Virus record (IMG/VR): IMGVR_UViG_2548877011_000002
Coordinates: 1 to 11,406 of that record
Source of the DNA: a virus
Taxonomy: Duplodnaviria > Heunggongvirae > Uroviricota > Caudoviricetes
DNA length: 11,406 bases
Direction: 5' to 3' (one strand)
Positions 1 to 11,406 of the stretch are shown here, piece after piece. The notes below the pieces were generated by a model that did not search any database, was not told where the DNA came from, and worked only from the letters and a program-made list of their open reading frames with translations. Each line of letters opens with the position of its first letter. Position 1 is the stretch's first letter. A program made the translations under genes and the position numbers.

Positions 1-9
1 ATTTGTCAT
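1..9 (-). CDS. First three codons of the gene downstream of cII on the minus strand, probably a replication (O-like) gene; runs off the left edge
   Basis: Minus-strand ATG (reverse complement of 7-9) preceded by AGGAG (reverse complement of 15-19); position after cII as in the lambdoid layout. Too short to identify. Confidence 0.25.
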
Positions 10-41
10 AATGACTCCTGTGGATTGATCCAGTAATTCCC

Positions 42-338
42 TCAGAATTGCATATCAATTTGCTTAGAGTCCCCGGCGGCCACCGGGGATTTTTTCTTTG
101 TGATTTCATCAAGCGCATACTTAAAAGCTCTGCTAATCGGACTGATGTCTGATGCCATGCCAAAAGCACACAAGACCGAAGCTATAAACCTCCAGTCTGT
201 TCTGCTTATCTTCGATTCATGACAGCCAATCATCTTTGCCAGACCGCGCTGGGTAAGCGTTGACAGGTTGATGAGTAAATCAGTTTCAGCGCGATCAATT
301 TCTCGCTGTGATAGTTTGCTGTAACTTGTTTGTTCCAT
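42..338 (-). CDS. cII: CII-like transcriptional activator (lysogeny establishment)
   Basis: 98-aa ORF. C-terminus ..KKKSPVAAGDSKQIDMQF resembles lambda CII ..KKRPAATERSEQIQMEF as recalled; central HTH-like segment (LAKMIGCHESKISR); lies after cro on the same strand. Confidence 0.7.
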   Translation of the reverse strand: MEQTSYSKLSQREIDRAETDLLINLSTLTQRGLAKMIGCHESKISRTDWRFIASVLCAFGMASDISPISRAFKYALDEITKKKSPVAAGDSKQIDMQF

Positions 339-349
339 TTCTTAAGATT
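316..349 (+). promoter_or_regulatory. Candidate pRE-type promoter with CII half-sites (TTGC-N6-TTGT) and TAAGAT -10, antisense to the cII 5' end
   Basis: TTGCtgtaacTTGT at 316-329 inside the first codons of cII, followed about 14 nt later by TAAGAT (344-349); geometry and the TAAGAT-TTCC stretch resemble lambda pRE as recalled. Confidence 0.35.
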
Positions 350-377
350 TCCAATAGTGAATAGCTAGTTGAAAGGT

Positions 378-393
378 ATGCGTGGAAACGCAT
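378..393 (-). repeat. Perfect 6-bp inverted repeat (hairpin) in the cro-cII intergenic region; possible tR1/nutR-associated structure
   Basis: ATGCGT-ggaa-ACGCAT read directly; no T-run follows, so it is not a classical intrinsic terminator. Confidence 0.3.
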
Positions 394-423
394 ATGGCCT
401 TAGTTGGTCAGATATATTGGGAC

Positions 424-438
424 TCGCTTTGTCAGCGA
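424..438 (-). promoter_or_regulatory. nutR boxB-like hairpin (GACAA loop)
   Basis: Minus-strand reading TCGCT-GACAA-AGCGA, the same loop and near-identical stem as the plus-strand hairpin at 3334-3348; lies just downstream of cro. A possible boxA-like CGCTATTTT is the reverse complement of 462-470. Confidence 0.5.
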
Positions 439-476
439 CGTAGGACGAATGTCCATTGTGAAAATAGCGGTGTTAC

Positions 477-710
477 TTATGCAGCCGATGCTCTACGCGA
501 TACGAACACTAGGTTTTCCTTTTTCACAGGTTTATAACCCGTGAAATTACGAGTAGCTTCTTCGATTGCATTCGCTTTATCAGGGGAAGCTCTTCGAAAT
601 CCATATGCAATCTGGTCAAGATAGCCAACTGAAGTTTTCGCTAATGCGGCGAGTCGCTTCCATTCCTCACTAGAAGCCTCTTTTCGCCAGCGTAGTAGTT
701 CATTACTCAT
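477..710 (-). CDS. cro: Cro-like HTH regulator (YdaS/Cro-type)
   Basis: 77-aa ORF divergent from cI across an operator-rich intergenic region; HTH-like core LAKTSVGYLDQIAYGFRRASPDKANAIEEATR resembles YdaS/Cro-type proteins. Confidence 0.6.
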   Translation of the reverse strand: MSNELLRWRKEASSEEWKRLAALAKTSVGYLDQIAYGFRRASPDKANAIEEATRNFTGYKPVKKENLVFVSRRASAA

Positions 711-823
711 TAGTGCCTCCGTTTATCACACAGAACAACTTTACCATTTTGATAAATCATCCGCAATGTAAATTTATCATATTGCGTATTTATCCATTTG
801 CTAAATAGAGGGAAAATTGTGAG
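711..823. promoter_or_regulatory. oR region with divergent pR/pRM promoters and repeated operator motif
   Basis: Divergent cI/cro intergenic region containing TTTATCA at 722-728 and 773-779, TTTATCC at 789-795, and the inverted form GATAAA at 751-756; the 10-mer AATTTATCAT at 771-780 recurs in oL. Confidence 0.6.
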
Positions 824-1528
824 ATGGAAAACAAAGATATTCGCAAATCGAATCTGGCGTTTTTGCTAGATGAGCATAAAAAAATCGCGGGTAACACTAA
901 TGCAAGCTTTGCCGATAAGCTTGGGGTTAGCCCTTCTCAACTCACGCAAGTCTCCGGTGAAAAAAGCACTCGAAACATAGGGGATAAACTAGCAAGAAAA
1001 TTTGAAGCCGCGCTTGGGTTACCTAATGGGTGGCTTGATTTGGTACATGATGTAACACCAATTGCATCATGCTCAGATTCTTTAACTTTTGTCGGTCAGG
1101 TAAGAAAAGGGTTAGTGCGCGTGGTTGGTGAGGCAATTCTTGGTGTTGATGGTGCCATCGAGATGACCGAAGAGCGCGATGGGTGGCTCAAAATTTATAG
1201 CGATGATCCAGATGCCTTTGGTCTTCGTGTGAAAGGAGACAGCATGTGGCCCAGAATAAAATCAGGAGAATATGTACTCATTGAGCCTAACACCAAAGTA
1301 TTCCCGGGTGATGAGGTGTTTGTCAGAACTGTTGAAGGACACAACATGATCAAAGTTCTTGGCTATGACAGAGACGGAGAATACCAATTTACAAGCATCA
1401 ACCAGGACCACAGGCCAATAACGTTGCCTTATCATCAAGTAGCAAAGGTGGAGTATGTGGCTGGTATTCTGAAGCAATCTCGCCATCTGGATGACATCGA
1501 GGCAAGGGAGTGGCTGAAAAGTTCGTGA
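824..1528 (+). CDS. cI: CI-type prophage repressor (N-terminal HTH, C-terminal S24/LexA-like autopeptidase domain)
   Basis: 234-aa ORF; N-terminal HTH-like region (FADKLGVSPSQLTQV); C-terminal domain with a GDSMWP serine motif and a downstream lysine (MIKVLG) typical of LexA/CI self-cleaving repressors; divergent from cro. Confidence 0.9.
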   Translation: MENKDIRKSNLAFLLDEHKKIAGNTNASFADKLGVSPSQLTQVSGEKSTRNIGDKLARKFEAALGLPNGWLDLVHDVTPIASCSDSLTFVGQVRKGLVRVVGEAILGVDGAIEMTEERDGWLKIYSDDPDAFGLRVKGDSMWPRIKSGEYVLIEPNTKVFPGDEVFVRTVEGHNMIKVLGYDRDGEYQFTSINQDHRPITLPYHQVAKVEYVAGILKQSRHLDDIEAREWLKSS

Positions 1529-1610
1529 CTTCATCGTCACATAGCTGGTAACCAGTGGCCTGAAGAGACGTTTGGGTGATGTACATAGCATTTCTGGATA
1601 AAAATACAGA

Positions 1611-1652
1611 TTCCCTTTATGGGAAATGAATCTATAATTCCCAAAAAGGGAA
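1611..1652 (+). promoter_or_regulatory. Candidate promoter/operator for the toxin-antitoxin-chaperone cassette
   Basis: Two palindromes TTCCC-N5-GGGAA (1611-1625 and 1638-1652) flank a perfect TATAAT at 1633-1638; the toxin ATG is at 1665. Confidence 0.45.
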
Positions 1653-1664
1653 CAAAATCGGATT

Positions 1665-1952
1665 ATGAAGGTCTTAAACGTAGAGAAGCTTCACAGTTTT
1701 AGCCGGAAGCACAATCAGGCCAAGGGGGCTTTAGACTCTTGGTATGATGAAGTGATAAGAGAAAACTGGAAAACGACTCAAGACATACGGAATAGATTTA
1801 ATTCTGCCGACTTCCTTCCTAACAACAGGGTAATTTTTAATATAAAAGGCAATAACTATCGGCTCGTTGTCCAAGTTGTTTACCAGGCAGGAATGGTCAT
1901 AGTTGAAAGAGTTGGAACTCATGCAGAGTACGACAAGTGGAGGCTTAAATGA
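1665..1952 (+). CDS. higB: HigB-type toxin (RelE/ParE-fold mRNA interferase family)
   Basis: 95-aa ORF; C-terminal half FNIKGNNYRLVVQVVYQAGMVIVERVGTHAEYDKW parallels E. coli HigB (YgjN) ..FNVGGNELRVVAMVFF..CYIREVMTHKEYD as recalled; 4-nt ATGA overlap with the next ORF. Confidence 0.8.
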   Translation: MKVLNVEKLHSFSRKHNQAKGALDSWYDEVIRENWKTTQDIRNRFNSADFLPNNRVIFNIKGNNYRLVVQVVYQAGMVIVERVGTHAEYDKWRLK

Positions 1953-2605
1953 ATCGAACTAGCTGGCGCATCATTAAAAATAGTGAAGAGCATGCTGCAG
2001 CTATGGAAAGGCTCATTGAACTTGCGTCTAGTGATTTACAACCTGGAACTGAAGATTTTGATGAGTTTGAACTACTAGGCTTGCTTATCGAGCACTATGA
2101 GTCACGCGAGTTCCCTATGGACAAGCCAGATCCCATAGAAGCAATCAAGTTCCGTATGGATCAACAAGGCCTCTCTTATGCCGATATGAAACAATACATT
2201 GGCTCAGCATCTAAAGTATCTGAGGTCTTAAATCGTAAGCGTCCATTAAGTCTTTCAATGATCCGTAGACTACATGACGGACTTGGAATTCCTGCAGATA
2301 TCTTAATTCAAGATATGAGCGCAATTGAATGGAGCCTAGTTGACGCAGAGGAAGAAGAAACAGCCATGACTAGCGTCATTGCTCGGTGTGAGTCAGCCGT
2401 CACATCACCTTCTGCTTATTTCGCTGAAAAGGCTACAGAATCTTACTTTTCAAAAATGTTGTTCAGCGCAGTAAGGGGTAATGGCAAATGCAAAGAAAAA
2501 CGGAATGTTTTTTCTTTGATAAGTAACTTGTCATCAAGTTTCACAGCGGCTAGCAACCTGAATGACGAAATGACTTCTGACGGAAATTACTTATTATTAC
2601 CATGA
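1949..2605 (+). CDS. higA: HigA-type HTH antitoxin with a ~90-aa C-terminal extension (candidate chaperone-addiction region)
   Basis: 218-aa ORF; residues ~60-125 (PIEAIKFRMDQQGLSYADMKQYIGSASKVSEVLNRKRPLSLSMIRRLHDGLGIPADILI) parallel the E. coli HigA (YgjM) HTH region as recalled; it then continues ~90 aa beyond where HigA normally ends, Ser/Ala-rich; ATGA overlaps with both neighbours. Confidence 0.75.
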   Translation: MNRTSWRIIKNSEEHAAAMERLIELASSDLQPGTEDFDEFELLGLLIEHYESREFPMDKPDPIEAIKFRMDQQGLSYADMKQYIGSASKVSEVLNRKRPLSLSMIRRLHDGLGIPADILIQDMSAIEWSLVDAEEEETAMTSVIARCESAVTSPSAYFAEKATESYFSKMLFSAVRGNGKCKEKRNVFSLISNLSSSFTAASNLNDEMTSDGNYLLLP

Positions 2606-3006
2606 AAATTGAACTCATTAGCAAAAAAGTTGAACGCTTGGTTATGACACGGCTAGAAGGCGATTCAACAGCAAAAAAAGCCATAAAAACAACCGTTAAT
2701 CTAAATAATGAACTTTACACTAATGTGAAGGATTCAAAGCTATTTAGAGTGAGATATTTTGCCTCCGTAACTATTGAAGGCAGGCTTGAGATGGACATCA
2801 CATACGACTTTGACTTCCGGTCAGAAGATGATTTTTCTCATGAAATGGCAAAATCATATGAGGTAAGGTCCATTGCTCCCAATATGGCATATCCCTATAT
2901 AAAAACATATGCCGAGCAAATTATCCTCATGTCAAACCTTGGTAGGTTCACTCTGCCTTATTTTGATTTCTTGGCCAATCCCATGGAAACGAACAGTAAT
3001 AAGTGA
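2602..3006 (+). CDS. SecB-like chaperone (third component of the cassette)
   Basis: 134-aa ORF translationally coupled to the antitoxin; C-terminal PNMAYPYIKTYAEQIILMSNLGRF..LPYFDF resembles the SecB segment [28 protein letters not shown] as recalled. The similarity is remote and by eye only. Confidence 0.6.
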   Translation: MKIELISKKVERLVMTRLEGDSTAKKAIKTTVNLNNELYTNVKDSKLFRVRYFASVTIEGRLEMDITYDFDFRSEDDFSHEMAKSYEVRSIAPNMAYPYIKTYAEQIILMSNLGRFTLPYFDFLANPMETNSNK

Positions 3007-3014
3007 AATTCCCC

Positions 3015-3040
3015 ACCCGGCCTCAGCGCCGGGTTTTCTT
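3015..3040 (+). terminator. Intrinsic terminator closing the cI/cassette transcription unit
   Basis: ACCCGGC-ctcagc-GCCGGGT stem-loop followed by TTTCTTT, 9 nt after the stop codon of the chaperone ORF. Confidence 0.7.
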
Positions 3041-3144
3041 TGCCTCACGATCCCCACACCTAAAAACACATAACCAATTGTATTTGTTGAAAAATAAATA
3101 GATACAACTTGCTAAACAACGCAATCCAGATCTCCCTCAAATCT

Positions 3145-3265
3145 CTTTATTTATCCTGTCGAATTCCTACAACAAAATAAAACACCATAAGAATCAATAC
3201 GATATTTGAAAACCAAGAGAATTTATCATTTTGCTATTGCCATTAATTTATCATTCCGATAAAGT
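3145..3265 (+). promoter_or_regulatory. oL/pL region: repeated operator motif and candidate pL promoter
   Basis: AATTTATCATT at 3220-3230 and 3245-3255, TTTATCC at 3150-3156, GATAAA at 3258-3263; candidate -35 TTGCCA (3237-3242) and -10 TAAAGT (3260-3265) with 17-nt spacing, reading toward N. Confidence 0.5.
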
Positions 3266-3333
3266 TCACCCATCAGCAGGACGCACTACTCACCAGGGCG
3301 GTGAATATACAACGATTCGAATATGAATCTACG

Positions 3334-3348
3334 GCGCTGACAAAGCGC
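3334..3348 (+). promoter_or_regulatory. nutL boxB hairpin (P22-type, GACAA loop)
   Basis: GCGCT-GACAA-AGCGC matches the P22-type boxB as recalled; lies between pL and N. Confidence 0.6.
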
Positions 3349-3477
3349 AATAACCAAAGTGAACTTTGGGGTGAATGCAGAAGCTAACCTTCTCGGCGGA
3401 GGCGCTTTGCAATGATTACGCGACCGGAGTTAGTCGCCCGGCTGTATTCACCGCCAAAGTTCATCAGGAGGTTCCAT

Positions 3478-3861
3478 ATGACACGCAGAACTCAGTTCAA
3501 AGGCAATTCTCGTTCTCGTCGTCGTGAGCGTTTAAAGGCAAAGGCATTAGCTAACGGCGTACTGGCCCGCGAAGAAGCAATAAGTTCAGAAGTATTACAC
3601 CGCCCAACTCTAAGTAGAGCGCAGATTCAGGCTAAAGGTACTCACGAAACGCCTGATCGCATAGAAGACGCTAAGCCAATTAAGTTCATGGCACAGGACG
3701 TGATCTGGCAGCAGGAAGAATACAGACGCAATCTGGAGCGAGCGGCCATTGTGTACGCGAATGAGTTTGGACATAAGCAACCAGAAACTGGTGTATGTCT
3801 TCCAAATGTAGCTCTTTACGCGGCAGGCTACCGGAAATCCAAACAACTGACAGCAAGATGA
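3478..3861 (+). CDS. N: N-type transcription antiterminator (P22 gp24-like)
   Basis: Arginine-rich N-terminus (MTRRTQFKGNSRSRRRERLKAK); C-terminus ..VALYAAGYRKSKQLTAR close to P22 N ..VALYAAGHRKSKQITAR as recalled; AGGAGG at 3466-3471 before the ATG at 3478. The track start at 3412 is in frame but lacks an RBS. Confidence 0.8.
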   Translation: MTRRTQFKGNSRSRRRERLKAKALANGVLAREEAISSEVLHRPTLSRAQIQAKGTHETPDRIEDAKPIKFMAQDVIWQQEEYRRNLERAAIVYANEFGHKQPETGVCLPNVALYAAGYRKSKQLTAR

Positions 3862-3919
3862 CTTGTGTTGGTCGCCAGAAAATGAAATTAGGCAGCAAAC
3901 CACTTATTTGAGGTGATAT

Positions 3920-4390
3920 ATGACAAAATCATGGAGCGTACCTTTTCCTGAATCAGAAACTGAACATGATGGAATGCCTGTTTTCTGGAGATTCCAGGCG
4001 ACAGTTGAAGAAGATGGGATAAAAATATTCGCACTTCAATATATAGCTTTTCATCAGACAGAGCATTATGCATGGTTGGTTCCTGCGCATTGGATTGTTA
4101 ATTTTAAACCAGCACCAAATCAGTGGTTACAGGAATGGAAACAAAGGAGAAATAGATATGCAATTAAGAAAGTAGCAAAAAATGCAGAAAGATCTTTTGC
4201 ATTCCCAACGAAGAAACTTGCCATTGAAAGTTTATTGCGCCGGAAGAAATACCATTTAATGAGAATCAAACAAGATTTGGCTGTTGTATCAACTCTTGTT
4301 GATGGTATGAAGAATATTGATACATCAACACCAGATATTGAATATAACTTTGGACACAACCAAGAAACAGAAAATTGGGTATTTTATTAG
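3920..4390 (+). CDS. Hypothetical protein (156 aa) in an AT-rich island between N and ea10
   Basis: Complete ORF with GAGGTGA before the ATG; no family recognised; visibly AT-richer than its neighbours; followed by an inverted repeat and an intrinsic terminator. Confidence 0.5.
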   Translation: MTKSWSVPFPESETEHDGMPVFWRFQATVEEDGIKIFALQYIAFHQTEHYAWLVPAHWIVNFKPAPNQWLQEWKQRRNRYAIKKVAKNAERSFAFPTKKLAIESLLRRKKYHLMRIKQDLAVVSTLVDGMKNIDTSTPDIEYNFGHNQETENWVFY

Positions 4391-4404
4391 TACGAATAAG
4401 CACT

Positions 4405-4432
4405 GTGTATTCATTCCAACGAGTGAATACAC
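4405..4432. repeat. 9-bp perfect inverted repeat GTGTATTCA-N10-TGAATACAC
   Basis: Read directly from the sequence; sits between the 156-aa ORF and the terminator; could be a protein-binding site or RNA hairpin. Confidence 0.5.
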
Positions 4433-4494
4433 GGAGCAATGTCGCTCGTAACTAAACAGGAGCCGACTTGTTCTGATTATTGGAAATCTTCTTT

Positions 4495-4520
4495 GCCCTC
4501 CAATGTGAGGGCGATTTTTT
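4495..4520 (+). terminator. Intrinsic terminator
   Basis: GCCCTC-caatgt-GAGGGC followed by GATTTTTT. Confidence 0.7.
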
Positions 4521-4540
4521 ATCTGTGAGGATATGAACAG

Positions 4541-4909
4541 ATGTCAAACATCAAAAAATACATCATTGATTACGACTGGAAAGCATCAATAGAAATTGAA
4601 ATCGACCATGACGTAATGACAGAGGAAAAACTTCACCAGATTAATAATTTCTGGTCAGACTCTGAATACCGACTCAATAAACACGGCTCTGTATTAAATG
4701 CTGTATTAATCATGCTGGCGCAACATGCTCTGCTTATAGCAATTTCAAGCGACTTAAATGCATATGGTGTTGTGTGTGAGTTCGACTGGAATGATGGAAA
4801 TGGTCAGGAAGGATGGCCTCCAATGGATGGTAGCGAAGGAATAAGAATTACCGATATCGATACATCAGGAATATTTGATTCAGATGATATGACTATCAAG
4901 GCCGCCTGA
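4541..4909 (+). CDS. ea10: Ea10-like protein (lambda ea10 position, upstream of cIII)
   Basis: 122-aa ORF, the same length and position as lambda ea10 and with a sequence I believe matches it; GAGGA RBS upstream. Identity is from memory only. Confidence 0.55.
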   Translation: MSNIKKYIIDYDWKASIEIEIDHDVMTEEKLHQINNFWSDSEYRLNKHGSVLNAVLIMLAQHALLIAISSDLNAYGVVCEFDWNDGNGQEGWPPMDGSEGIRITDIDTSGIFDSDDMTIKAA

Positions 4910-4981
4910 GTGCGGCTTTACCGCATACCAATAACGCTTCACTCGAGGCGTTTTTCGTTATGTATAAATAAGGAGCACACC

Positions 4982-5146
4982 ATGCAATATGCCATTGCAG
5001 GGTGGCCTGTTGCTGGCTGCCCTTCCGAATCTTTACTTGAACGAATCACCCGTAAATTACGTGACGGATGGAAACGCCTTATCGACATACTTAATCAGCC
5101 AGGAGTCCCAAAGAATGGATCAAACACTTATGGCTATCCAGACTAA
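4982..5146 (+). CDS. cIII: CIII (FtsH inhibitor that protects CII)
   Basis: 54-aa product [54 protein letters not shown] matches lambda CIII as recalled; AAGGAG at 4970-4975. The track's GTG start at 4910 is an upstream in-frame extension. Confidence 0.85.
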   Translation: MQYAIAGWPVAGCPSESLLERITRKLRDGWKRLIDILNQPGVPKNGSNTYGYPD

Positions 5147-5258
5147 ATTCACTATCGCCACTTTTATTGGCGATGAAAAGATGTTTCGTGAAGCCGTCGA
5201 CGCTTATAAAAAATGGATATTAATGCTGAAACTGAGATCAAGCAAAAGCATTCACTAA
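5115..5258 (+). CDS. kil: Kil (host cell-division inhibitor peptide)
   Basis: 47-aa product [47 protein letters not shown]; overlaps the cIII 3' end by 32 nt as in lambda; AGGAG at 5101-5105. Confidence 0.75.
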
Positions 5259-5333
5259 CCCCATTTCCTGTTTTCCTAATCAGCCTGGCATTTCGCGGGC
5301 GATATTTTCACAGCCATTTTCAGGAGTTCAGCC

Positions 5334-5630
5334 ATGAACGCTTATTACATTCAGGATCGTCTTGAGGCTCAGAGCTGGGCGCGTCACTACCAGCAGATCG
5401 CCCGTGAAGAGAAAGAGGCAGAACTGGCAGACGACATGGAAAAAGGCCTGCCCCAGCACCTGTTTGAATCGCTATGCATCGATCATTTGCAACGCCACGG
5501 GGCCAGCAAAAAAGCCATTACCCGTGCGTTTGATGACGATGTTGAGTTTCAGGAGCGCATGGCAGAACACATCCGGTACATGGTTGAAACCATTGCTCAC
5601 CACCAGGTTGATATTGATTCAGAGGTATAA
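5334..5630 (+). CDS. gam: Gam (RecBCD inhibitor), short 98-aa form
   Basis: Sequence [51 protein letters not shown].. essentially identical to lambda GamS as recalled. Confidence 0.9.
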
Positions 5631-5635
5631 AACGG

Positions 5636-6421
5636 ATGAGTACAGCACTCGCAACGCTGGCTGGGAAGCTGGCTGAACGTGTCGGCATGGATTCTGTCGA
5701 CCCACAGGAACTGATCACCACTCTTCGCCAGACGGCATTTAAAGGCGATGCCAGCGATGCGCAGTTCATCGCATTGTTGATCGTCGCCAACCAGTACGGC
5801 CTTAATCCGTGGACGAAAGAAATTTACGCCTTCCCTGATAAGCAGAACGGCATCGTTCCGGTGGTGGGCGTTGATGGCTGGTCCCGCATCATCAATGAAA
5901 ACCAGCAGTTTGATGGCATGGACTTTGAGCAGGACAATGAATCCTGTACATGCCGGATTTACCGCAAGGACCGTAATCATCCGATCTGCGTTACCGAATG
6001 GATGGATGAATGCCGCCGCGAACCATTCAAAACCCGCGAAGGCAGAGAAATCACCGGACCGTGGCAGTCGCATCCCAAACGGATGTTACGGCATAAAGCC
6101 ATGATTCAGTGTGCCCGTCTGGCCTTCGGATTTGCTGGTATCTATGACAAGGATGAAGCCGAGCGCATTGTCGAAAATACCGCATACACTGCAGAACGTC
6201 AGCCGGAACGCGACATCACTCCGGTTAACAATGAAACCATGCAGGAGATTAACACTCTGCTGATCGCCCTGGATAAAACATGGGATGACGACTTATTGCC
6301 GCTCTGTTCCCAGATATTTCGCCGCGACATTCGCGCATCGTCAGAACTGACACAGGCCGAAGCAGTGAAAGCTCTTGGATTCCTGAAACAGAAAGCCACT
6401 GAGCAGAAGGTGGCAGCATGA
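5636..6421 (+). CDS. bet: Bet (Red-beta single-strand annealing protein)
   Basis: 261-aa product near-identical to lambda Bet as recalled ([37 protein letters not shown]..). Confidence 0.95.
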
Positions 6422-7098
6422 CACCGGACATTATCCTGCAGCGTACCGGGATCGATGTGAGAGCTGTCGAACAGGGGGATGATGCATGGCACAAATTACG
6501 GCTCGGCGTCATCACCGCTTCAGAAGTTCACAACGTGATAGCAAAGCCCCGCTCAGGAAAGAAGTGGCCTGACATGAAAATGTCCTACTTCCACACCCTG
6601 CTTGCTGAGGTTTGCACCGGTGTGGCTCCGGAAGTTAACGCTAAGGCTCTGGCCTGGGGAAAACAGTACGAGAACGACGCCAGAACCCTCTTTGAGTTCA
6701 CTTCCGGCGTTAATGTTACTGAATCCCCGATCATCTATCGCGACGAAAGTATGCGCACCGCCTGCTCTCCCGATGGTTTATGCAGTGACGGTAACGGCCT
6801 TGAGCTGAAATGCCCGTTTACCTCCCGGGATTTCATGAAGTTCCGGCTCGGTGGTTTCGAGGCCATAAAATCGGCTTACATGGCCCAGGTGCAGTACAGC
6901 ATGTGGGTGACGCGAAAAGATGCCTGGTACTTTGCCAACTATGACCCGCGTATGAAGCGTGAAGGCCTGCATTATGTCGTGATTGAGCGGAATGAAAAGT
7001 ACATGGCGAATTTTGACGAGATGGTGCCGGAGTTCATCGAAAAAATGGACGAGGCACTGGCTGAAATTGGTTTTGTATTTGGGGAGCAATGGCGATGA
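6418..7098 (+). CDS. exo: Exo (Red-alpha 5'-3' exonuclease)
   Basis: 226-aa product near-identical to lambda Exo as recalled ([62 protein letters not shown]..); 4-nt overlap with bet. Confidence 0.95.
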
Positions 7099-7277
7099 AG
7101 CATCCTCACGATAATATCCGCGTAGGCACGATCACTTTCGTCTACTCCGTTACAAAGCGAGGCTGGGTATTTCCCGGCCTTTCTGTTATCCAAAATCCAC
7201 TGAAAGCCCAGCGGCTGGCTGAGGAGATAAATAATAAACGAGGGGCTGTATGCACAAAGCATCTCCTGTTGAGTTAA
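7089..7277 (+). CDS. Small hypothetical protein (lambda orf60a position)
   Basis: 62-aa ORF overlapping the exo stop; same position and size as lambda orf60a. Confidence 0.5.
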
Positions 7278-7441
7278 GAACGAGCATTGAGATGGCACAT
7301 AGCCTTGCTCAAATTGGAGTCAGGTTTGTGCCAATACCAGTAGAAACAGACGAAGAATTTCATACGTTAGCCGCATCCCTTTCACAAAAGCTGGAAATGA
7401 TGGTGGCGAAAGCAGAAGCAGATGAGAGAGACCAGGTATGA
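7250..7441 (+). CDS. Small hypothetical protein (lambda orf63 position)
   Basis: 63-aa ORF overlapping the upstream ORF as in lambda. Confidence 0.5.
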   Translation: MHKASPVELRTSIEMAHSLAQIGVRFVPIPVETDEEFHTLAASLSQKLEMMVAKAEADERDQV

Positions 7442-7521
7442 CAACCACTGAATGCATTTTTCTGGCAGCGGGCTTCATATTCTGTGTGCTTATGCTTGCC
7501 GACATGGGACTTGTTCAATGA
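7438..7521 (+). CDS. Candidate 27-aa hydrophobic peptide (single predicted TM helix)
   Basis: Own translation: MTTTECIFLAAGFIFCVLMLADMGLVQ. ATGA overlap with the upstream stop (7438-7441) and overlap of its stop with the next start (7518-7521). Below the ORF-track size cut-off. Confidence 0.3.
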   Translation: MTTTECIFLAAGFIFCVLMLADMGLVQ

Positions 7522-7733
7522 CACCTCAGCAAGAAAACGCCCTTCGCAGTATTGCCCGTCAGGCTAATTCTGAAATCAAAAAAGCCAGACAGCAGTTTCC
7601 GGATAAAAACGTCGATGACATTTGCCGTAGCGTACTGAAGAAGCACCGCGAAACGGTAACGCTGATGGGATTCACACCGACTCATTTAAGTCTGGCGATC
7701 GGCATGTTAAACGGCGTCTTTAAGGAGCGATGA
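7518..7733 (+). CDS. Small hypothetical protein (71 aa from the internal Met; possible orf61-position homologue)
   Basis: Track ORF 7452..7733; the start MTPQQENALRS.. at 7518 is translationally coupled to the upstream peptide and is preferred. Confidence 0.45.
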   Translation: MTPQQENALRSIARQANSEIKKARQQFPDKNVDDICRSVLKKHRETVTLMGFTPTHLSLAIGMLNGVFKER

Positions 7734-7754
7734 ACATGAAAAGCAAAATCATCA

Positions 7755-7777
7755 GGGAGCTACAGGCTCCTTTTTTA
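7755..7777 (+). terminator. Candidate intrinsic terminator
   Basis: GGGAGC-tacag-GCTCC stem-loop followed by TTTTTTATTATT. Confidence 0.45.
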
Positions 7778-7831
7778 TTATTCGCATTCACCCTCAAGCG
7801 TATTAACCAACAATTCAGGGATTAATGAAAG

Positions 7832-8053
7832 ATGGCGGACATCATTGATTCAGCATCAGAAATTGAAGAATTACAGCGCAATACAGCAATAAAAATGCGT
7901 CGTCTGAACTACCAGACTATATCCGCCACTCATTGTTGTGAGTGTGGCGATCCCATAGATGAACGAAGACGTCTGGCCGTTCAGGGTTGTCGGACTTGTG
8001 CAAGTTGCCAGGAAGATCTGGAGCTTATCAGTAAACAGAGAGGTTCGAAGTGA
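7832..8053 (+). CDS. TraR/DksA-family C4 zinc-finger protein
   Basis: 73-aa ORF with CxxC-N17-CxxC spacing (CCECGDPIDERRRLAVQGCRTCASC), typical of phage TraR-like proteins. Confidence 0.65.
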   Translation: MADIIDSASEIEELQRNTAIKMRRLNYQTISATHCCECGDPIDERRRLAVQGCRTCASCQEDLELISKQRGSK

Positions 8054-8688
8054 GCGAAATTAACTCTCAGGCACTGCGTGAAGCGGCAGAGCAGGCAATG
8101 CATGACGACTGGGGATTTGATGCGGACCTTTTCCATGAGCTGGTAACACCATCGATTGTGCTGGCGCTGCTGGATGAACGGGAAAGAAACCAGCAATACA
8201 TCAAACGCCGCGACCAGGAGAACGAGGATATTGCTCTTACGGTAGGGAAGCTGCGTGTTGAGCTGGAAGCAGCAGAGAACAACCTTATTGATAGTGAATG
8301 CCATGTTGCTGAACTGGAAGAAGCGCTACGCGATAAGCAGGCGTTACTTGAAGCCTCAGAAAAGCGCAACGCAAAATTACAAAGCGAGAATGCATACATC
8401 CGCAACCGGTACAAAGAACTGGACCTGTTAATCGGGAAAAACATTCTTGTCATGCAGGCTGCGATTATCGAATGGCAGGCAACTGGCGACGCTAAAAGCG
8501 GACTGGCATGGATTTATAACACACTGTTTGGCCCAGGCGAATTGCCGGACGAATCTGAGAAAGATGCTCAGGCCTACTTTAATCGCAAATATGCACCGAT
8601 TGACGAAAAGCTTATGGAGCTTCACAAGTGGTTTTGGGAACAAAGTGAAGCCGAGCGCGCCGCTGGCATTCGCATCAAAGGAGAGTGA
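8050..8688 (+). CDS. Ead/Ea22-like coiled-coil protein
   Basis: 212-aa ORF with GTG start overlapping the upstream stop; N-terminus MSEINSQALREAAEQA.. and a central heptad-rich region resemble Ead/Ea22-like prophage proteins; low certainty. Confidence 0.45.
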   Translation: MSEINSQALREAAEQAMHDDWGFDADLFHELVTPSIVLALLDERERNQQYIKRRDQENEDIALTVGKLRVELEAAENNLIDSECHVAELEEALRDKQALLEASEKRNAKLQSENAYIRNRYKELDLLIGKNILVMQAAIIEWQATGDAKSGLAWIYNTLFGPGELPDESEKDAQAYFNRKYAPIDEKLMELHKWFWEQSEAERAAGIRIKGE

Positions 8689-8689
8689 G

Positions 8690-9445
8690 ATGATTCACTA
8701 CCACGGTGGGCCTATTACTCCTGATACGTGCGCAATGAGAGCATGGAAAGGGCGACATGCGTTTATCAGTTTTGCGCATTCAGGCCAGATCAATCTCGCG
8801 GCTGAATACTGTCAGTCGTTCGCGCTGGACAACGGTGCATTCACCGCCTGGAAAGCAGCTGGCAAAAACAAAATCGACTGGAGCGATTACTACGAGTTTG
8901 TTGCTCGCTGGAAGAATCACCCAGGATTCGATTTTGCCATTATCCCGGATGTTATTGATGGCGGAGAGGAGGAAAATGATGCGCTTCTGAATGAGTGGCC
9001 TCACGGAAAACTAGCTGGCGTTCCAGTGTGGCACATGAATGAAAGTGACGAGCGATTTATTCATTTGTGCAATGAGTTTCCGCGAGTGGCTATCGGTAGT
9101 TGTGGCGACTATGACGTAAAGCGCCCAACTCTTGCGGTAGCCAGAATGAAAGACCTGATTCGTCACATTGTTGATGGGCATGGTCAGCCGGTTACGAAAC
9201 TACATGGATTGCGCATGTTAAATCCGCTGATATTCACAAAATTACCCTTAGCCAGCGCAGATAGTACGAACGTCGCTCGAAACATCGGTATTGATAAAGC
9301 CTGGTCTGGGGCTTATGCACCTGCAAGTAAAGAGACACGCGCAGCATTAATGGTAGAACGGATTGAGGCACACAATAGCCCTGGTTCTCTTGCGTATTGT
9401 GAACAACGCGACCGCTTTGAAATGCAATTGCAACTAGCACTTTAA
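8690..9445 (+). CDS. TGT-fold protein, candidate DpdA-like DNA transglycosylase (7-deazaguanine DNA modification)
   Basis: 251-aa product from the ATG at 8690 (AAAGGAGAG RBS; the track's 8447 start lies inside the upstream gene). Collinear motif resemblance to tRNA-guanine transglycosylase: FALDNGAF vs LTDSGGFQ, FDFAIIPDVIDG vs DIVMIFDECTPY, FPRVAIGSCGDY vs GFDGYAVGGLAVGE, LASADSTNV vs GIDMFDCV. By eye only. Confidence 0.4.
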   Translation: MIHYHGGPITPDTCAMRAWKGRHAFISFAHSGQINLAAEYCQSFALDNGAFTAWKAAGKNKIDWSDYYEFVARWKNHPGFDFAIIPDVIDGGEEENDALLNEWPHGKLAGVPVWHMNESDERFIHLCNEFPRVAIGSCGDYDVKRPTLAVARMKDLIRHIVDGHGQPVTKLHGLRMLNPLIFTKLPLASADSTNVARNIGIDKAWSGAYAPASKETRAALMVERIEAHNSPGSLAYCEQRDRFEMQLQLAL

Positions 9446-9455
9446 GGACTAACAA

Positions 9456-10286
9456 ATGACCACTATTACCAAAGAACGTATTGAATTGTTCATTAAAAAT
9501 CCGCTTGAAAACGGGCTTACTCGTGGCGAACAAATGGAACTGGCACGAATTGCACTGGCATCACTGGAACGCGAACTGATTCGCCACGAGCATGCCAAAT
9601 GGTCTGACTCCACATTTGGCTGCGTTGGCCCCATTGGTCCACTGAAACACCTCTCAAAAGAGGCTCTGGAAGCCGCAGCCGAACCAGACGATCTCAGCGA
9701 GTGGGCTGATATGCATTTCCTGTTGTGGGATGCACAGCGCCGTGCTGGCATCAGCGATGCTGAAATTACCGCTGCTATGGAAGATAAATTGAAGATCAAC
9801 ATGGAGCGCCAGTGGCCTGAACCAAAAGATGGTGAGCCTCGCTTGCACATTAAAGAACCCGGCAACTCTCCGGTAATTCCGGATGGTTTATCCACGGTAT
9901 GCGCTGAGGCTTATCAGGTTGTAGGAGTTATGGCAGATGCGCTTGGTGTATTCGGTGATGCAGCAGTACAGAAAGTTCTGGATAACCTGTCACAGCAAAA
10001 ACTTGTTCACAGAGATGTGCTGCCGTTCTCGCTTCCGGCAACTCCGGATGGTTGGATAAGCTGTAGTGAGCGAATGCCTGAAATGGGAGAGCGACAATGC
10101 TATGTGTTAGCAGCTGACTTTAAAAACAACTACCCACCAAACATCCCCAACACTCAGGTCGGCGTATATGGCGACTGGTTTAATGATGGCAAGCCCACTT
10201 GGGATGACGGTGATGGCGAAGACCTGTATCTCAAAGAGGTAACCCACTGGATGCAGCTACCAGAACCGCCGCAGGAGGTGAAATGA
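9456..10286 (+). CDS. DUF550 (dATP/dGTP pyrophosphohydrolase-like) plus DUF551 two-domain prophage protein
   Basis: 276-aa ORF; N-terminal region (HEHAKWSDSTFGCVGPIGPLKHLSKEALEAAAEPDDLSEWADMHFLLWDAQRRAGISDAEI) matches the recalled DUF550 pattern; C-terminal DGWISCSERMPE..VLAADF.. matches the DUF551 pattern. Confidence 0.55.
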   Translation: MTTITKERIELFIKNPLENGLTRGEQMELARIALASLERELIRHEHAKWSDSTFGCVGPIGPLKHLSKEALEAAAEPDDLSEWADMHFLLWDAQRRAGISDAEITAAMEDKLKINMERQWPEPKDGEPRLHIKEPGNSPVIPDGLSTVCAEAYQVVGVMADALGVFGDAAVQKVLDNLSQQKLVHRDVLPFSLPATPDGWISCSERMPEMGERQCYVLAADFKNNYPPNIPNTQVGVYGDWFNDGKPTWDDGDGEDLYLKEVTHWMQLPEPPQEVK

Positions 10287-10369
10287 TGAATTGGCCTGAA
10301 GCATTCACCGCAGTTGGAGTTGCAATAGCGGTGGCATTTATTCTGTATTCGCTTTTCCGCTGGGGATAA
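10283..10369 (+). CDS. Candidate 28-aa hydrophobic peptide (single predicted TM helix)
   Basis: Own translation: MMNWPEAFTAVGVAIAVAFILYSLFRWG. Start overlaps the upstream stop (ATGATG at 10283-10288); the next ORF starts 5 nt after its stop. Below the ORF-track cut-off. Confidence 0.3.
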   Translation: MMNWPEAFTAVGVAIAVAFILYSLFRWG

Positions 10370-10373
10370 AGGA

Positions 10374-10616
10374 ATGTTCGCTCTGATTCAACGTGGTCAG
10401 ATATACACGGACAGAGCCGGATACCCTGTGGTGATTACTCGCAGTACTCAGCACTCAGTGTTCTTTCGACGCATGGACGGGCGCTCCGGACGGGTACGCA
10501 TTGGTGAGTTCAACAACCTGTTCGAACATATTGACCAACAGGAGTACCGCAAAATTCTGGCGGGCACTGAGCAGGAAATGCGCCTGAAAAAATTACGCGC
10601 AATGCAACGGAGGTGA
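10374..10616 (+). CDS. Hypothetical small protein (80 aa; possibly DUF4222-like)
   Basis: Complete ORF with AAGGA before the ATG; family assignment uncertain. Confidence 0.45.
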   Translation: MFALIQRGQIYTDRAGYPVVITRSTQHSVFFRRMDGRSGRVRIGEFNNLFEHIDQQEYRKILAGTEQEMRLKKLRAMQRR

Positions 10617-10619
10617 TAC

Positions 10620-10754
10620 ATGCATACGGCTTTTGAGTTCTGGGTTCGCAAGACATTCGGCAATCGCTACGACCTGACCCGTGATGTCGACGGCTTCTAC
10701 TGCCGTGAAGTTGTGAAACGAATGTTTGACGTGTGGTTCCACTGCCGTGGATGA
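10620..10754 (+). CDS. Candidate 44-aa Cys/Trp-rich small protein
   Basis: Own translation: MHTAFEFWVRKTFGNRYDLTRDVDGFYCREVVKRMFDVWFHCRG. ATG 4 nt after the upstream stop, GGAGGTGA RBS within the upstream gene end. Confidence 0.35.
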   Translation: MHTAFEFWVRKTFGNRYDLTRDVDGFYCREVVKRMFDVWFHCRG

Positions 10755-10772
10755 AAGTTTTATGAGGTTGGC

Positions 10773-11027
10773 ATGCAGACAATCATCTATCAGATAACCC
10801 CCAGCAAATGGTGTACGGAGAGAGTCCTTATTGCATCAACAGGGCTAAAGCCCGGCACCATCGAGCGGGCCAGAAGAAAGTCATGGATGCAGGGAAAAGA
10901 ATACCGCCATTACGCTGTAGAAGGTGATCCTGGGCATTACAGTGAATGCCTGTACAACATCGAAGAAATTATGCGATGGATCGAAAACCAGAAACAACCA
11001 GGTGCCAAAAATGCAAGTTCCGGTTAA
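10773..11027 (+). CDS. xis: Excisionase-like protein
   Basis: 84-aa ORF immediately upstream of the integrase start and co-directional with it; basic, small, with a conserved-looking ITPSKWC segment seen in some prophage excisionases. Call is mainly positional. Confidence 0.5.
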   Translation: MQTIIYQITPSKWCTERVLIASTGLKPGTIERARRKSWMQGKEYRHYAVEGDPGHYSECLYNIEEIMRWIENQKQPGAKNASSG

Positions 11028-11060
11028 CCTGTTAATGCTCCTGGACGTCTGGGAGGTTTA

Positions 11061-11406
11061 ATGAGTAACGCATCATACCCGACAGGCGTTGAAAACCATG
11101 GAGGATCACTCCGTATATGGTTTCACTATAATGGCAAACGTGTCAGAGAAAACCTCGGTGTTCCTGACACAGCCAAAAACCGGAAGATCGCTGGTGAACT
11201 TCGCACTTCCGTTTGTTTTGCAATCAGAATGGGGAGTTTCGACTACGCCGCGCAGTTCCCTAATTCCCCTAACCTGAAACACTTTGGTCTGGGAAAAAGA
11301 GAGATAACCGTTAAGGCACTTTCGGAAAAATGGTTGGACCTTAAGAAAATTGAGATTTGTGCGAATGCACTTAACCGTTACCAGTCAGTAATTAAAAACA
11401 TGTTAC
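11061..11406 (+). CDS. int: Tyrosine integrase, N-terminal (arm-binding) part; 3' end beyond the window
   Basis: Own translation from the ATG at 11061 (GGGAGG at 11051-11056): MSNASYPTGVENHGGSLRIWFHYNGKRVRENLGVPDTAKNRKIAGELRTSVCFAIRMGSFDYAAQFPNSPNLKHFG.., resembling N-terminal domains of prophage integrases. Absent from the ORF track because no stop lies in the window. Confidence 0.6.
   Translation, partial: MSNASYPTGVENHGGSLRIWFHYNGKRVRENLGVPDTAKNRKIAGELRTSVCFAIRMGSFDYAAQFPNSPNLKHFGLGKREITVKALSEKWLDLKKIEICANALNRYQSVIKNML

Follow-up and report, generated by a model that had tools for sequence, protein, structure and literature searches.

Phage DpdA proteins are relatives of tRNA-guanine transglycosylase (TGT) that insert 7-deazaguanine derivatives such as preQ0 into DNA. 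A survey that grouped 182 viruses placed 'DpdA only' phages in its third group, and its Supplementary Data 1 lists SfI (YP_009147480), HK106 (YP_007151699) and the Salmonella phages SPN3UB, SEN1, BTP1, SE131 and 7-11 (Hutinet et al. 2019, PMC6884629). The use of a transglycosylase without its pathway in many of these phages was raised as a question in the same year. A lone DpdA can use the host supply, because E. coli makes preQ0 and two enzymes modify DNA when acting alone: 9g DpdA in E. coli yielded 84–790 2′-deoxy-7-cyano-7-deazaguanosine (dPreQ0) per 10^6 nucleotides (nt) in plasmid DNA, and nt-1 DpdA2 yielded 926–1607 per 10^6 nt, a product that was missing from a queD mutant. VH7D DpdA2, acting by itself, inserted preQ1. 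Here we analyzed an 11,406-nt stretch of DNA from a tailed phage (Caudoviricetes; IMG/VR record IMGVR_UViG_2548877011_000002, positions 1 to 11,406), referred to below as the window, and focused on one gene in it that encodes a DpdA-like protein of 251 amino acids (aa). The SfI (67.6% identical) and HK106 (36%) accessions were confirmed as homologues of this protein, and 7-11 gp032 (YP_004782407) was 36% identical to it (E = 1e-32) with every motif kept. The original prediction had called the protein a candidate DpdA; that identity holds, but its presentation as fresh does not, the clade having been listed as DpdA since 2019. The family was described in that year, and the window gene, as a sequence finding, re-identifies this catalogued family. 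In the literature of 2024–2026 we found no functional study of this orphan clade.

We examined conservation of the protein in a set of 54 diverse homologues (33–94% identical to it). The three motifs quoted in the original prediction (FALDNGAF, FAIIPDVIDG and ASADSTNV; Table 1) are present and are not chance resemblances, as they recur among these homologues: D47, H172, S189, D191 and S192 were invariant (54/54), A50, D87, I89, N96 and H115 were each kept in 53, and residue 51 was aromatic in 53. The middle motif had been described as Asp-containing, which stands for D87 and not for D90, the latter being kept in only 32 of the 54. Comparison with the copy in Salmonella phage SPN3UB gave a ratio of nonsynonymous to synonymous substitution rates (dN/dS) of ~0.02, with proportions of differing sites of 0.70 at synonymous (pS; near saturation) and 0.04 at nonsynonymous positions (pN). 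The gene is real and under strong purifying selection; RefSeq labels its product (WP_000582233.1) 'hypothetical protein'. A single base separates its ATG from the stop codon (TGA, 8686–8688) that ends the upstream open reading frame (ORF), and because of the position of this stop its translation is probably coupled with that of the upstream ORF.

The gene was found in 204 of 5,426 complete E. coli genomes (~4%). Its family comprises more than 7,800 proteins by word-indexed search and 813 clusters at 50% identity (E ≤ 0.001), and spans phages of Enterobacterales, Vibrio, Aeromonas, Acinetobacter and Caulobacter. A tblastn search of 50,697 phage genomes matched 108 records, ranging from Stx1a_EH2115 (99.6%), Salmonella SPN3UB, Si3 and others (92.8%), Pantoea AH07 (88%) and Klebsiella RothC (69%), through Shigella SfI, Vibrio phages (61%) and Acinetobacter AB3P2 (52%), to SEN1 (38%), HK106 and the 7-11-like SeKF_80 (36%), with Pseudomonas phage Knedl at the weakest end (25%, E = 5e-6).

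The match to Knedl links the family to characterized enzymes. Knedl is an Iggyvirus, and the matched 312-aa protein lies directly downstream of queE, queC, queD and folE; it shares 99.4% identity with phage Iggy DpdA and 68% with 9g DpdA. Pairwise BLASTP between the window protein and Knedl DpdA gave E = 2e-12, and the window protein matched PHROG 887 (phrog_887, 'queuine tRNA-ribosyltransferase') at E = 2e-103. We then compared an alignment of the 54-sequence family with an alignment of seven DpdA1 proteins (9g, Knedl as the Iggy type, Seurat, Rosebush, MS1, RHEph04 and ZHS) by hhalign, which gave a probability of 99.6% and E = 2e-24 over 187 columns. When the two groups were aligned together with MAFFT, exactly ten columns were invariant, in which D72, A75, D114, I116, H141, G162, H196, S213, D215 and S216 of 9g correspond to D47, A50, D87, I89, H115, G136, H172, S189, D191 and S192 of the window protein. 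In this alignment FALDNGAF D47 falls on the Asp of 9g LDSGAF, S189-x-D191-S192 falls on the S-x-D-S of 9g, and the spacing from the His to the nucleophile Asp is 19 residues in both proteins (H172–D191 in the window protein). The DpdA1 LDSGAF in turn aligns with TDSGGFQ of E. coli Tgt, in an alignment that is non-significant. His196 is regarded as a hallmark of DpdA that is absent from DpdA2 (Hutinet et al. 2019, PMC6884629). The spacing of D47 and residue 51 (D+4 aromatic) is that of Asp95 and Phe99 in bacterial DpdA, and the role predicted for D191 is read off Asp256 of bacterial DpdA and Asp280 of TGT (PMC10164549).

Two relatives tie the clade to the 7-deazaguanine pathway. In the metagenomic protein P0270 (positions 2840–3847 of L011, a 24-kb phage-like contig), a complete QueD/PTPS domain (E = 1e-24) is fused to a DpdA-like domain that retains its motifs and shares 40% identity with the window protein; in Caulobacter phage DMCA, the homologue (39% identical) begins at the stop codon that ends a QueD-like ORF. 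These results, together with the profile match, indicate with high confidence that the window protein is a DpdA-family enzyme of the TGT fold with an intact active site, and they support the TGT-fold, DpdA-like identity proposed originally. A further protein, P0233, in which a D12-class Dam methyltransferase domain is fused to a DpdA-like domain, was considered as support for a DNA substrate and dropped; both domains are truncated at the junction, so that the protein may represent a chimera, artefact or pseudogene, and we do not rely on it.

Searches of family libraries, among them the Pfam check that had been suggested, returned no match to the window protein even at E ≤ 10 in Pfam-A (including TGT, PF01702), NCBIfam or the PADLOC DpdA model. 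A Pfam scan of 50 family members likewise gave no TGT match, a phmmer search and three family-profile hmmsearch runs (alignments A1, A2 and A6) found no match among PDB sequences, and hhalign with one Tgt sequence, that of E. coli, gave no significant match. These negatives say little, because the validated Knedl/Iggy-type DpdA is equally unmatched in Pfam and the PDB.

A first AlphaFold2 (AF2) model, built on a shallow alignment of close homologues, had a predicted local distance difference test score (pLDDT) of 75.6 and was replaced by a second built on a diverse alignment (pLDDT 92.0, predicted template modelling score 0.89, all five models with pLDDT above 90). The second model shows eight beta strands alternating with helices in a TGT-type (beta/alpha)8 barrel, with the conserved residues, including the three invariant or near-invariant Asp, at or just past the strand ends. 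The model thus confirms a triosephosphate isomerase (TIM) barrel, as the original prediction had anticipated, and is compatible with the TGT superfamily. Foldseek against the PDB returned only generic TIM barrels (template modelling score ~0.45) and was uninformative for superfamily; the top structural match was Cap10, with a consistent ranking and a thin margin. The DpdA assignment rests on the profile match to DpdA1, rather than on structure. The CxCxxC...H zinc motif, a defining feature of TGT and bacterial DpdA (PMC10164549), is lacking in the window protein, which has five scattered Cys and 60 residues after the nucleophile Asp. The DpdA proteins of 9g, Iggy type, Seurat, Rosebush and MS1 also lack CxCxxC, and Cap10 lacks a zinc site too. 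We therefore regard the missing site as no objection, because the validated phage DpdA1 proteins that we retrieved are without the motif as well.

Table 1 Features of the window discussed in the text (window positions, 5′ to 3′).
Feature	Position	Strand	Basis or remark
Orphan DpdA-like coding sequence, 251 aa, ATG at 8690, stop included	8690–9445	+	ORF list; RefSeq WP_000582233.1 at the same coordinates; PHROG 887; hhalign; AF2; dN/dS
Shine–Dalgarno AAGGAG, 6 nt before ATG	8678–8683	+	Read from the sequence
FALDNGAF, residues 44–51 (D47 at 8828–8830)	8819–8842	+	D47, predicted general acid/base and base-recognition Asp; F51, predicted aromatic gate
FAIIPDVIDG, residues 82–91 (D87 at 8948–8950)	8933–8962	+	D87, predicted base-recognition Asp, on 9g D114 (invariant in DpdA1) by profile–profile and joint alignments
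KLHGLR, residues 170–175 (H172 at 9203–9205)	9197–9214	+	Corresponds to conserved His196 of phage 9g DpdA
ASADSTNV, residues 188–195 (D191 at 9260–9262)	9251–9274	+	D191, predicted nucleophile (covalent enzyme–deoxyribose intermediate)
Ead/Ea22-like gene abutting the dpdA-like gene	8050–8688 (RefSeq start 8098)	+	C-terminal domain (aa 101–199) matches PADLOC 'DpdH', E = 6.9e-36
Downstream gene, continuous 276-aa ORF	9456–10286	+	DUF550 dATP/dGTP pyrophosphohydrolase (MazZ-like) domain and DUF551
Strong terminator-like hairpin, then T-run	7754–7772	+	Between a small ORF ending at 7733 and a TraR/DksA-like gene (7832–8053)
HigB-family toxin	1665–1952	+	Gene 1 of the three-gene insert
Helix-turn-helix protein, 218 aa	1949–2605	+	Gene 2 of the three-gene insert
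134-aa protein	2602–3006	+	Gene 3 of the three-gene insert; no family match

We next placed the gene in its element. The full window (11.4 kb) is 99.9% identical to a prophage of E. coli 13E0725 and of eight other complete genomes, a lambdoid Stx1a-converting prophage of ~59 kb beside mlrA (yehV). The annotated order is cII, a cro-like gene, a LexA-family repressor, a HigB-like toxin pair, N, cIII, kil, gam, bet, exo, small accessory genes, xis and int; because of this order, the window represents the immunity region and the leftward early (pL) operon, with the dpdA-like gene between exo and xis/int. The terminator-like hairpin lies upstream of the Ea22-like, dpdA-like and DUF550 genes, and expression of all three probably needs N antitermination. 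Within the late region of this prophage (NZ_CP020092), the portal and tail-tip J genes are annotated as frameshifted in the RefSeq assembly (5726–8472 and 18954–22429 of our extract L030); the prophage may accordingly be defective, or the assembly may hold homopolymer errors, a matter relevant to any induction experiment.

The N gene itself drew a separate observation. An uninterrupted ORF occupies 3412–3861 (+), where RefSeq marks just a 69-bp 'antitermination protein, incomplete' pseudogene. Its Arg-rich stretch MTRRTQFKGNSRSRRRERLKAK resembles lambdoid N proteins, and N is probably intact and mis-annotated in RefSeq. Between the LexA-family repressor (824–1528) and N, in the position of lambda's rexAB, we also noted a three-gene insert (1665–3006, +; Table 1), which may be a prophage toxin–antitoxin or defence cassette.

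Neither the window nor the remainder of the prophage has an annotated folE, queD, queE, queC, queF or amidotransferase gene; the statement that the window holds no preQ0 biosynthesis genes was therefore correct, and applies to the whole ~59-kb element. We surveyed 17 other contexts of the gene, covering phages SPN3UB, Si3, AH07, RothC, SfI, HK106, D453, AB3P2, DMCA, SeKF_80 and 7-11, prophages of Yersinia, E. coli and Aeromonas, as well as a metagenomic contig. In all 17 the gene is a single insert among small accessory genes of early operons, in lambdoid phages usually with the recombination genes on one side and xis-int on the other; SPN3UB and RothC carry it after the replication genes in the pR operon, as against pL here. 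DNA homology with SPN3UB (window ~8660–9480 versus 3970–4790 of the SPN3UB extract, L014) runs from ~30 nt before the ATG to ~25 nt into the next gene. The unit of exchange thus appears to be the single gene, because homology ends just outside it, and the two unrelated downstream proteins share the N-terminus MTTITKE because it reaches ~25 nt into the following gene.

None of the 17 contexts revealed a conserved partner gene, and a two-gene DpdA/DpdB-like or DpdA/MazZ-like module was rejected as a general feature for want of a conserved neighbour. In the window, the Ea22-like gene upstream carries a domain resembling DpdH (Table 1), a component of the restriction half of the bacterial Dpd 7-deazaguanine restriction–modification system; NCBIfam gave no corresponding match for this domain. 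A DpdH-like domain beside the dpdA-like gene was seen in this prophage and in none of the other contexts examined, and the Ea22/DpdH-like gene occurs without the dpdA-like gene in E. coli 86-24, since window homology there ends exactly at 8689. Mosaicism may have brought the two genes together by coincidence, or the pairing may reflect a second Dpd-related function. The gene downstream is a continuous ORF that RefSeq splits into a 'partial' fragment (9456–9575) and a coding sequence from 9549; a DUF550 gene lies upstream instead in Yersinia prophages (L020–L023) and is absent from most other contexts. ParB-like genes were found near two homologues: in Pantoea AH07, a 440-aa ParB-family gene (L018, 1182–2504) overlaps the start of the dpdA-like gene, and in Salmonella Si3 a short ParB-like gene (L017, 1681–2082) lies two genes upstream. 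Both recall the ParB-fold ATPase DpdB, though neither matched the PADLOC DpdB model; neighbours in eight phages other than the window prophage gave no DpdB match. In an Aeromonas prophage the upstream neighbour is a DUF4406 gene (L028, 3599–3907), which we take to be related to nucleoside 2-deoxyribosyltransferases.

On balance, we favour the reading that the gene encodes an orphan ('singleton') phage DpdA that acts in DNA. The product would be a minimal, zinc-free, single-domain TIM-barrel enzyme of the TGT superfamily, produced only when a prophage has been induced or a cell infected and N antitermination has set in; expression restricted to the lytic phase is suggested by the gene's pL location, downstream of the terminator-like hairpin. 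The enzyme would flip a guanine out of double-stranded DNA, and D191 would attack C1′ and displace the guanine, giving an intermediate in which enzyme and DNA are covalently linked. D47 would serve as general acid/base, and D47, D87 and the aromatic residue 51, as a stacking 'gate', would hold the base. A free 7-deazaguanine base would then resolve the intermediate. These active-site roles are predicted by homology with TGT and bacterial DpdA, from alignments (PMC10164549). The incoming base must be host-made, because the prophage has no folE, queD, queE or queC, and would most likely be preQ0, possibly preQ1 or a derivative. A sparse, probably motif-specific mark (~0.01–0.3% of G) would be expected because the host pool is small, and could give partial or selective protection against restriction. 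In this scheme we infer that the substrate is DNA, which base is inserted, when the gene is expressed and how the phage benefits.

Several points weigh against this reading. In similarity networks, singleton DpdAs fall into clusters of their own that follow host clade (Mycobacterium, gamma-Proteobacteria), and their function may have diverged (Hutinet et al. 2019). In 7-11, the sole measured phage of this orphan clade, DNA contains 50 2′-deoxy-7-amido-7-deazaguanosine (dADG) per 10^6 nt, ~0.02% of G; this mark is 1,000-fold sparser than in full-pathway phages, is dADG and not dPreQ0, and has no knockout tie to the gene. The singleton-DpdA phage Orion has no modification at all. Protection by such sparse marks is doubtful. 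Furthermore, the links to cellular TGT and bacterial DpdA were not reproduced by HMMER or by hhalign with a single Tgt, and the top structural match, Cap10, binds a protein-linked base, not nucleic acid. The protein is also slightly acidic (isoelectric point 6.3), and it is without the insertions from which bacterial DpdA builds its DNA-binding crescent (PMC10164549).

Some of these points bear on two rival explanations, both of which we consider unlikely. According to one, the protein is a TGT-fold enzyme that binds 7-deazaguanine and acts on a target other than phage DNA: a tRNA of host or phage, a protein-linked base as in Cap10 (for example, by intercepting or stripping a deazaguanylated defence protein), or a host 7-deazaguanine pool needed by defence systems, which it would deplete. 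The ranking of Cap10 as top structural match commends this explanation, given that Cap10 is also zinc-free and holds a protein N-terminus with 7-amido-7-deazaguanine; against it, the window protein has no sequence-level link to Cap10, and CBASS (cyclic oligonucleotide-based antiphage signalling system) genes are absent.

The other, to which we give a similarly low probability, is that the DpdA is intact and effectively silent or marginal in E. coli, a mobile single-gene 'moron' spread by mosaic exchange. It would insert a base only with unusually abundant free preQ0 or in other hosts, and confer little or no protection here. The block common with SPN3UB, consisting of the gene with its short margins and placed in pL in one phage and pR in the other, is consistent with this explanation, as are the near-absent or absent modification of 7-11 and Orion DNA and the frameshifted portal and J, by which the phage may be defective. 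The selection data argue in the opposite direction: dN/dS of ~0.02 with synonymous sites near saturation denotes very strong purifying selection, and a useless gene would be lost rather than persist in a family this widespread (813 clusters) with all active-site residues invariant. A generic TIM-barrel metabolic enzyme or a DNA glycosylase/hydrolase, with TGT-like Asp motifs arising by convergence, is highly improbable, as it is contradicted by the profile match at E = 2e-24 and the ten collinear invariant positions.

Returning to the orphan DpdA acting in DNA, we also consider a broader and rather speculative view, improbable as it stands, in which orphan temperate-phage DpdAs are not enzymes of bulk 'camouflage' but the 7-deazaguanine counterpart of orphan DNA methyltransferases or, via a non-DNA target, Cap10-like disarmers of 7-deazaguanine-dependent defence. 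As methyltransferase counterparts they may place a rare, motif-specific preQ0 or ADG mark from host precursors, mimicking the Dpd self-mark or blinding one restriction system; the upstream DpdH-like domain may then be a second anti-Dpd component and no coincidence. If the enzyme is active, the DNA of a Stx1a-converting phage would carry 7-deazaguanine marks derived from host queuosine precursors; these could affect which strains the toxin phage enters, and could allow 7-deazaguanine-recognising defences, for example Dag glycosylases and type IV enzymes, to detect it. The 'DpdA only' question is conveniently addressed in an inducible E. coli prophage, for which the genetics are well developed.

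Finally, we compared the locus with known systems. Compared with bacterial Tgt (PF01702), the window protein is a third shorter and has no zinc site, N-terminal lid or tRNA-binding insertions. Cap10 of type IV CBASS (PDB 9NTN chain B; Wassarman et al. 2025 preprint) shares 10% identity with it and resembles it in fold only; the Cap10 operon encodes a CD-NTase whose N-terminal tail reads M(G/S)G(G/S)GG, together with the QueC-like Cap9, whereas neither occurs in the window or prophage, and PADLOC gave no CBASS match there. Bacterial DpdA (PDB 7UI4; NCBIfam NF041059) gave no hidden Markov model match even at E ≤ 10; in contrast to it, the window protein has neither the CXCX2CX22H zinc site nor the large Ins8 helical domain, and measures 251 against 413–436 aa (PMC10164549). 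The DpdB (ParB-like ATPase) and DpdC partners of the bacterial Dpd system are absent from the prophage.

The likeness is closer to DpdA1 (9g, CAjan/Seurat, Iggy, Rosebush and Dp-1/MS1), the validated DNA preQ0 insertases. The catalytic core is homologous, with D, D, H, G, H and S-x-D-S in common, and both are without the zinc motif and apparently single polypeptides. The window protein is 22–27% identical to DpdA1 and ~60 aa shorter, mainly after the nucleophile Asp; folE, queD, queE and queC flank dpdA in 9g and Knedl, but not here; and DpdA1 phages replace up to ~30% of G (Queuovirinae), a level not expected here. Closest of all are the singleton DpdAs (SPN3UB at 92.8%, SfI at 67.6%, 7-11 and HK106 at 36%, as well as SEN1 and BTP1), from which nothing substantive differs: the setting here is a Stx1a-converting prophage with DpdH-like Ea22 and DUF550–DUF551 flanks, and these flanks are not conserved. 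The singleton DpdAs and the window protein belong to the same clade, measure ~250 aa and carry identical conserved residues, and in each case the gene stands alone in an accessory region, without que genes, in phages that are mostly temperate.

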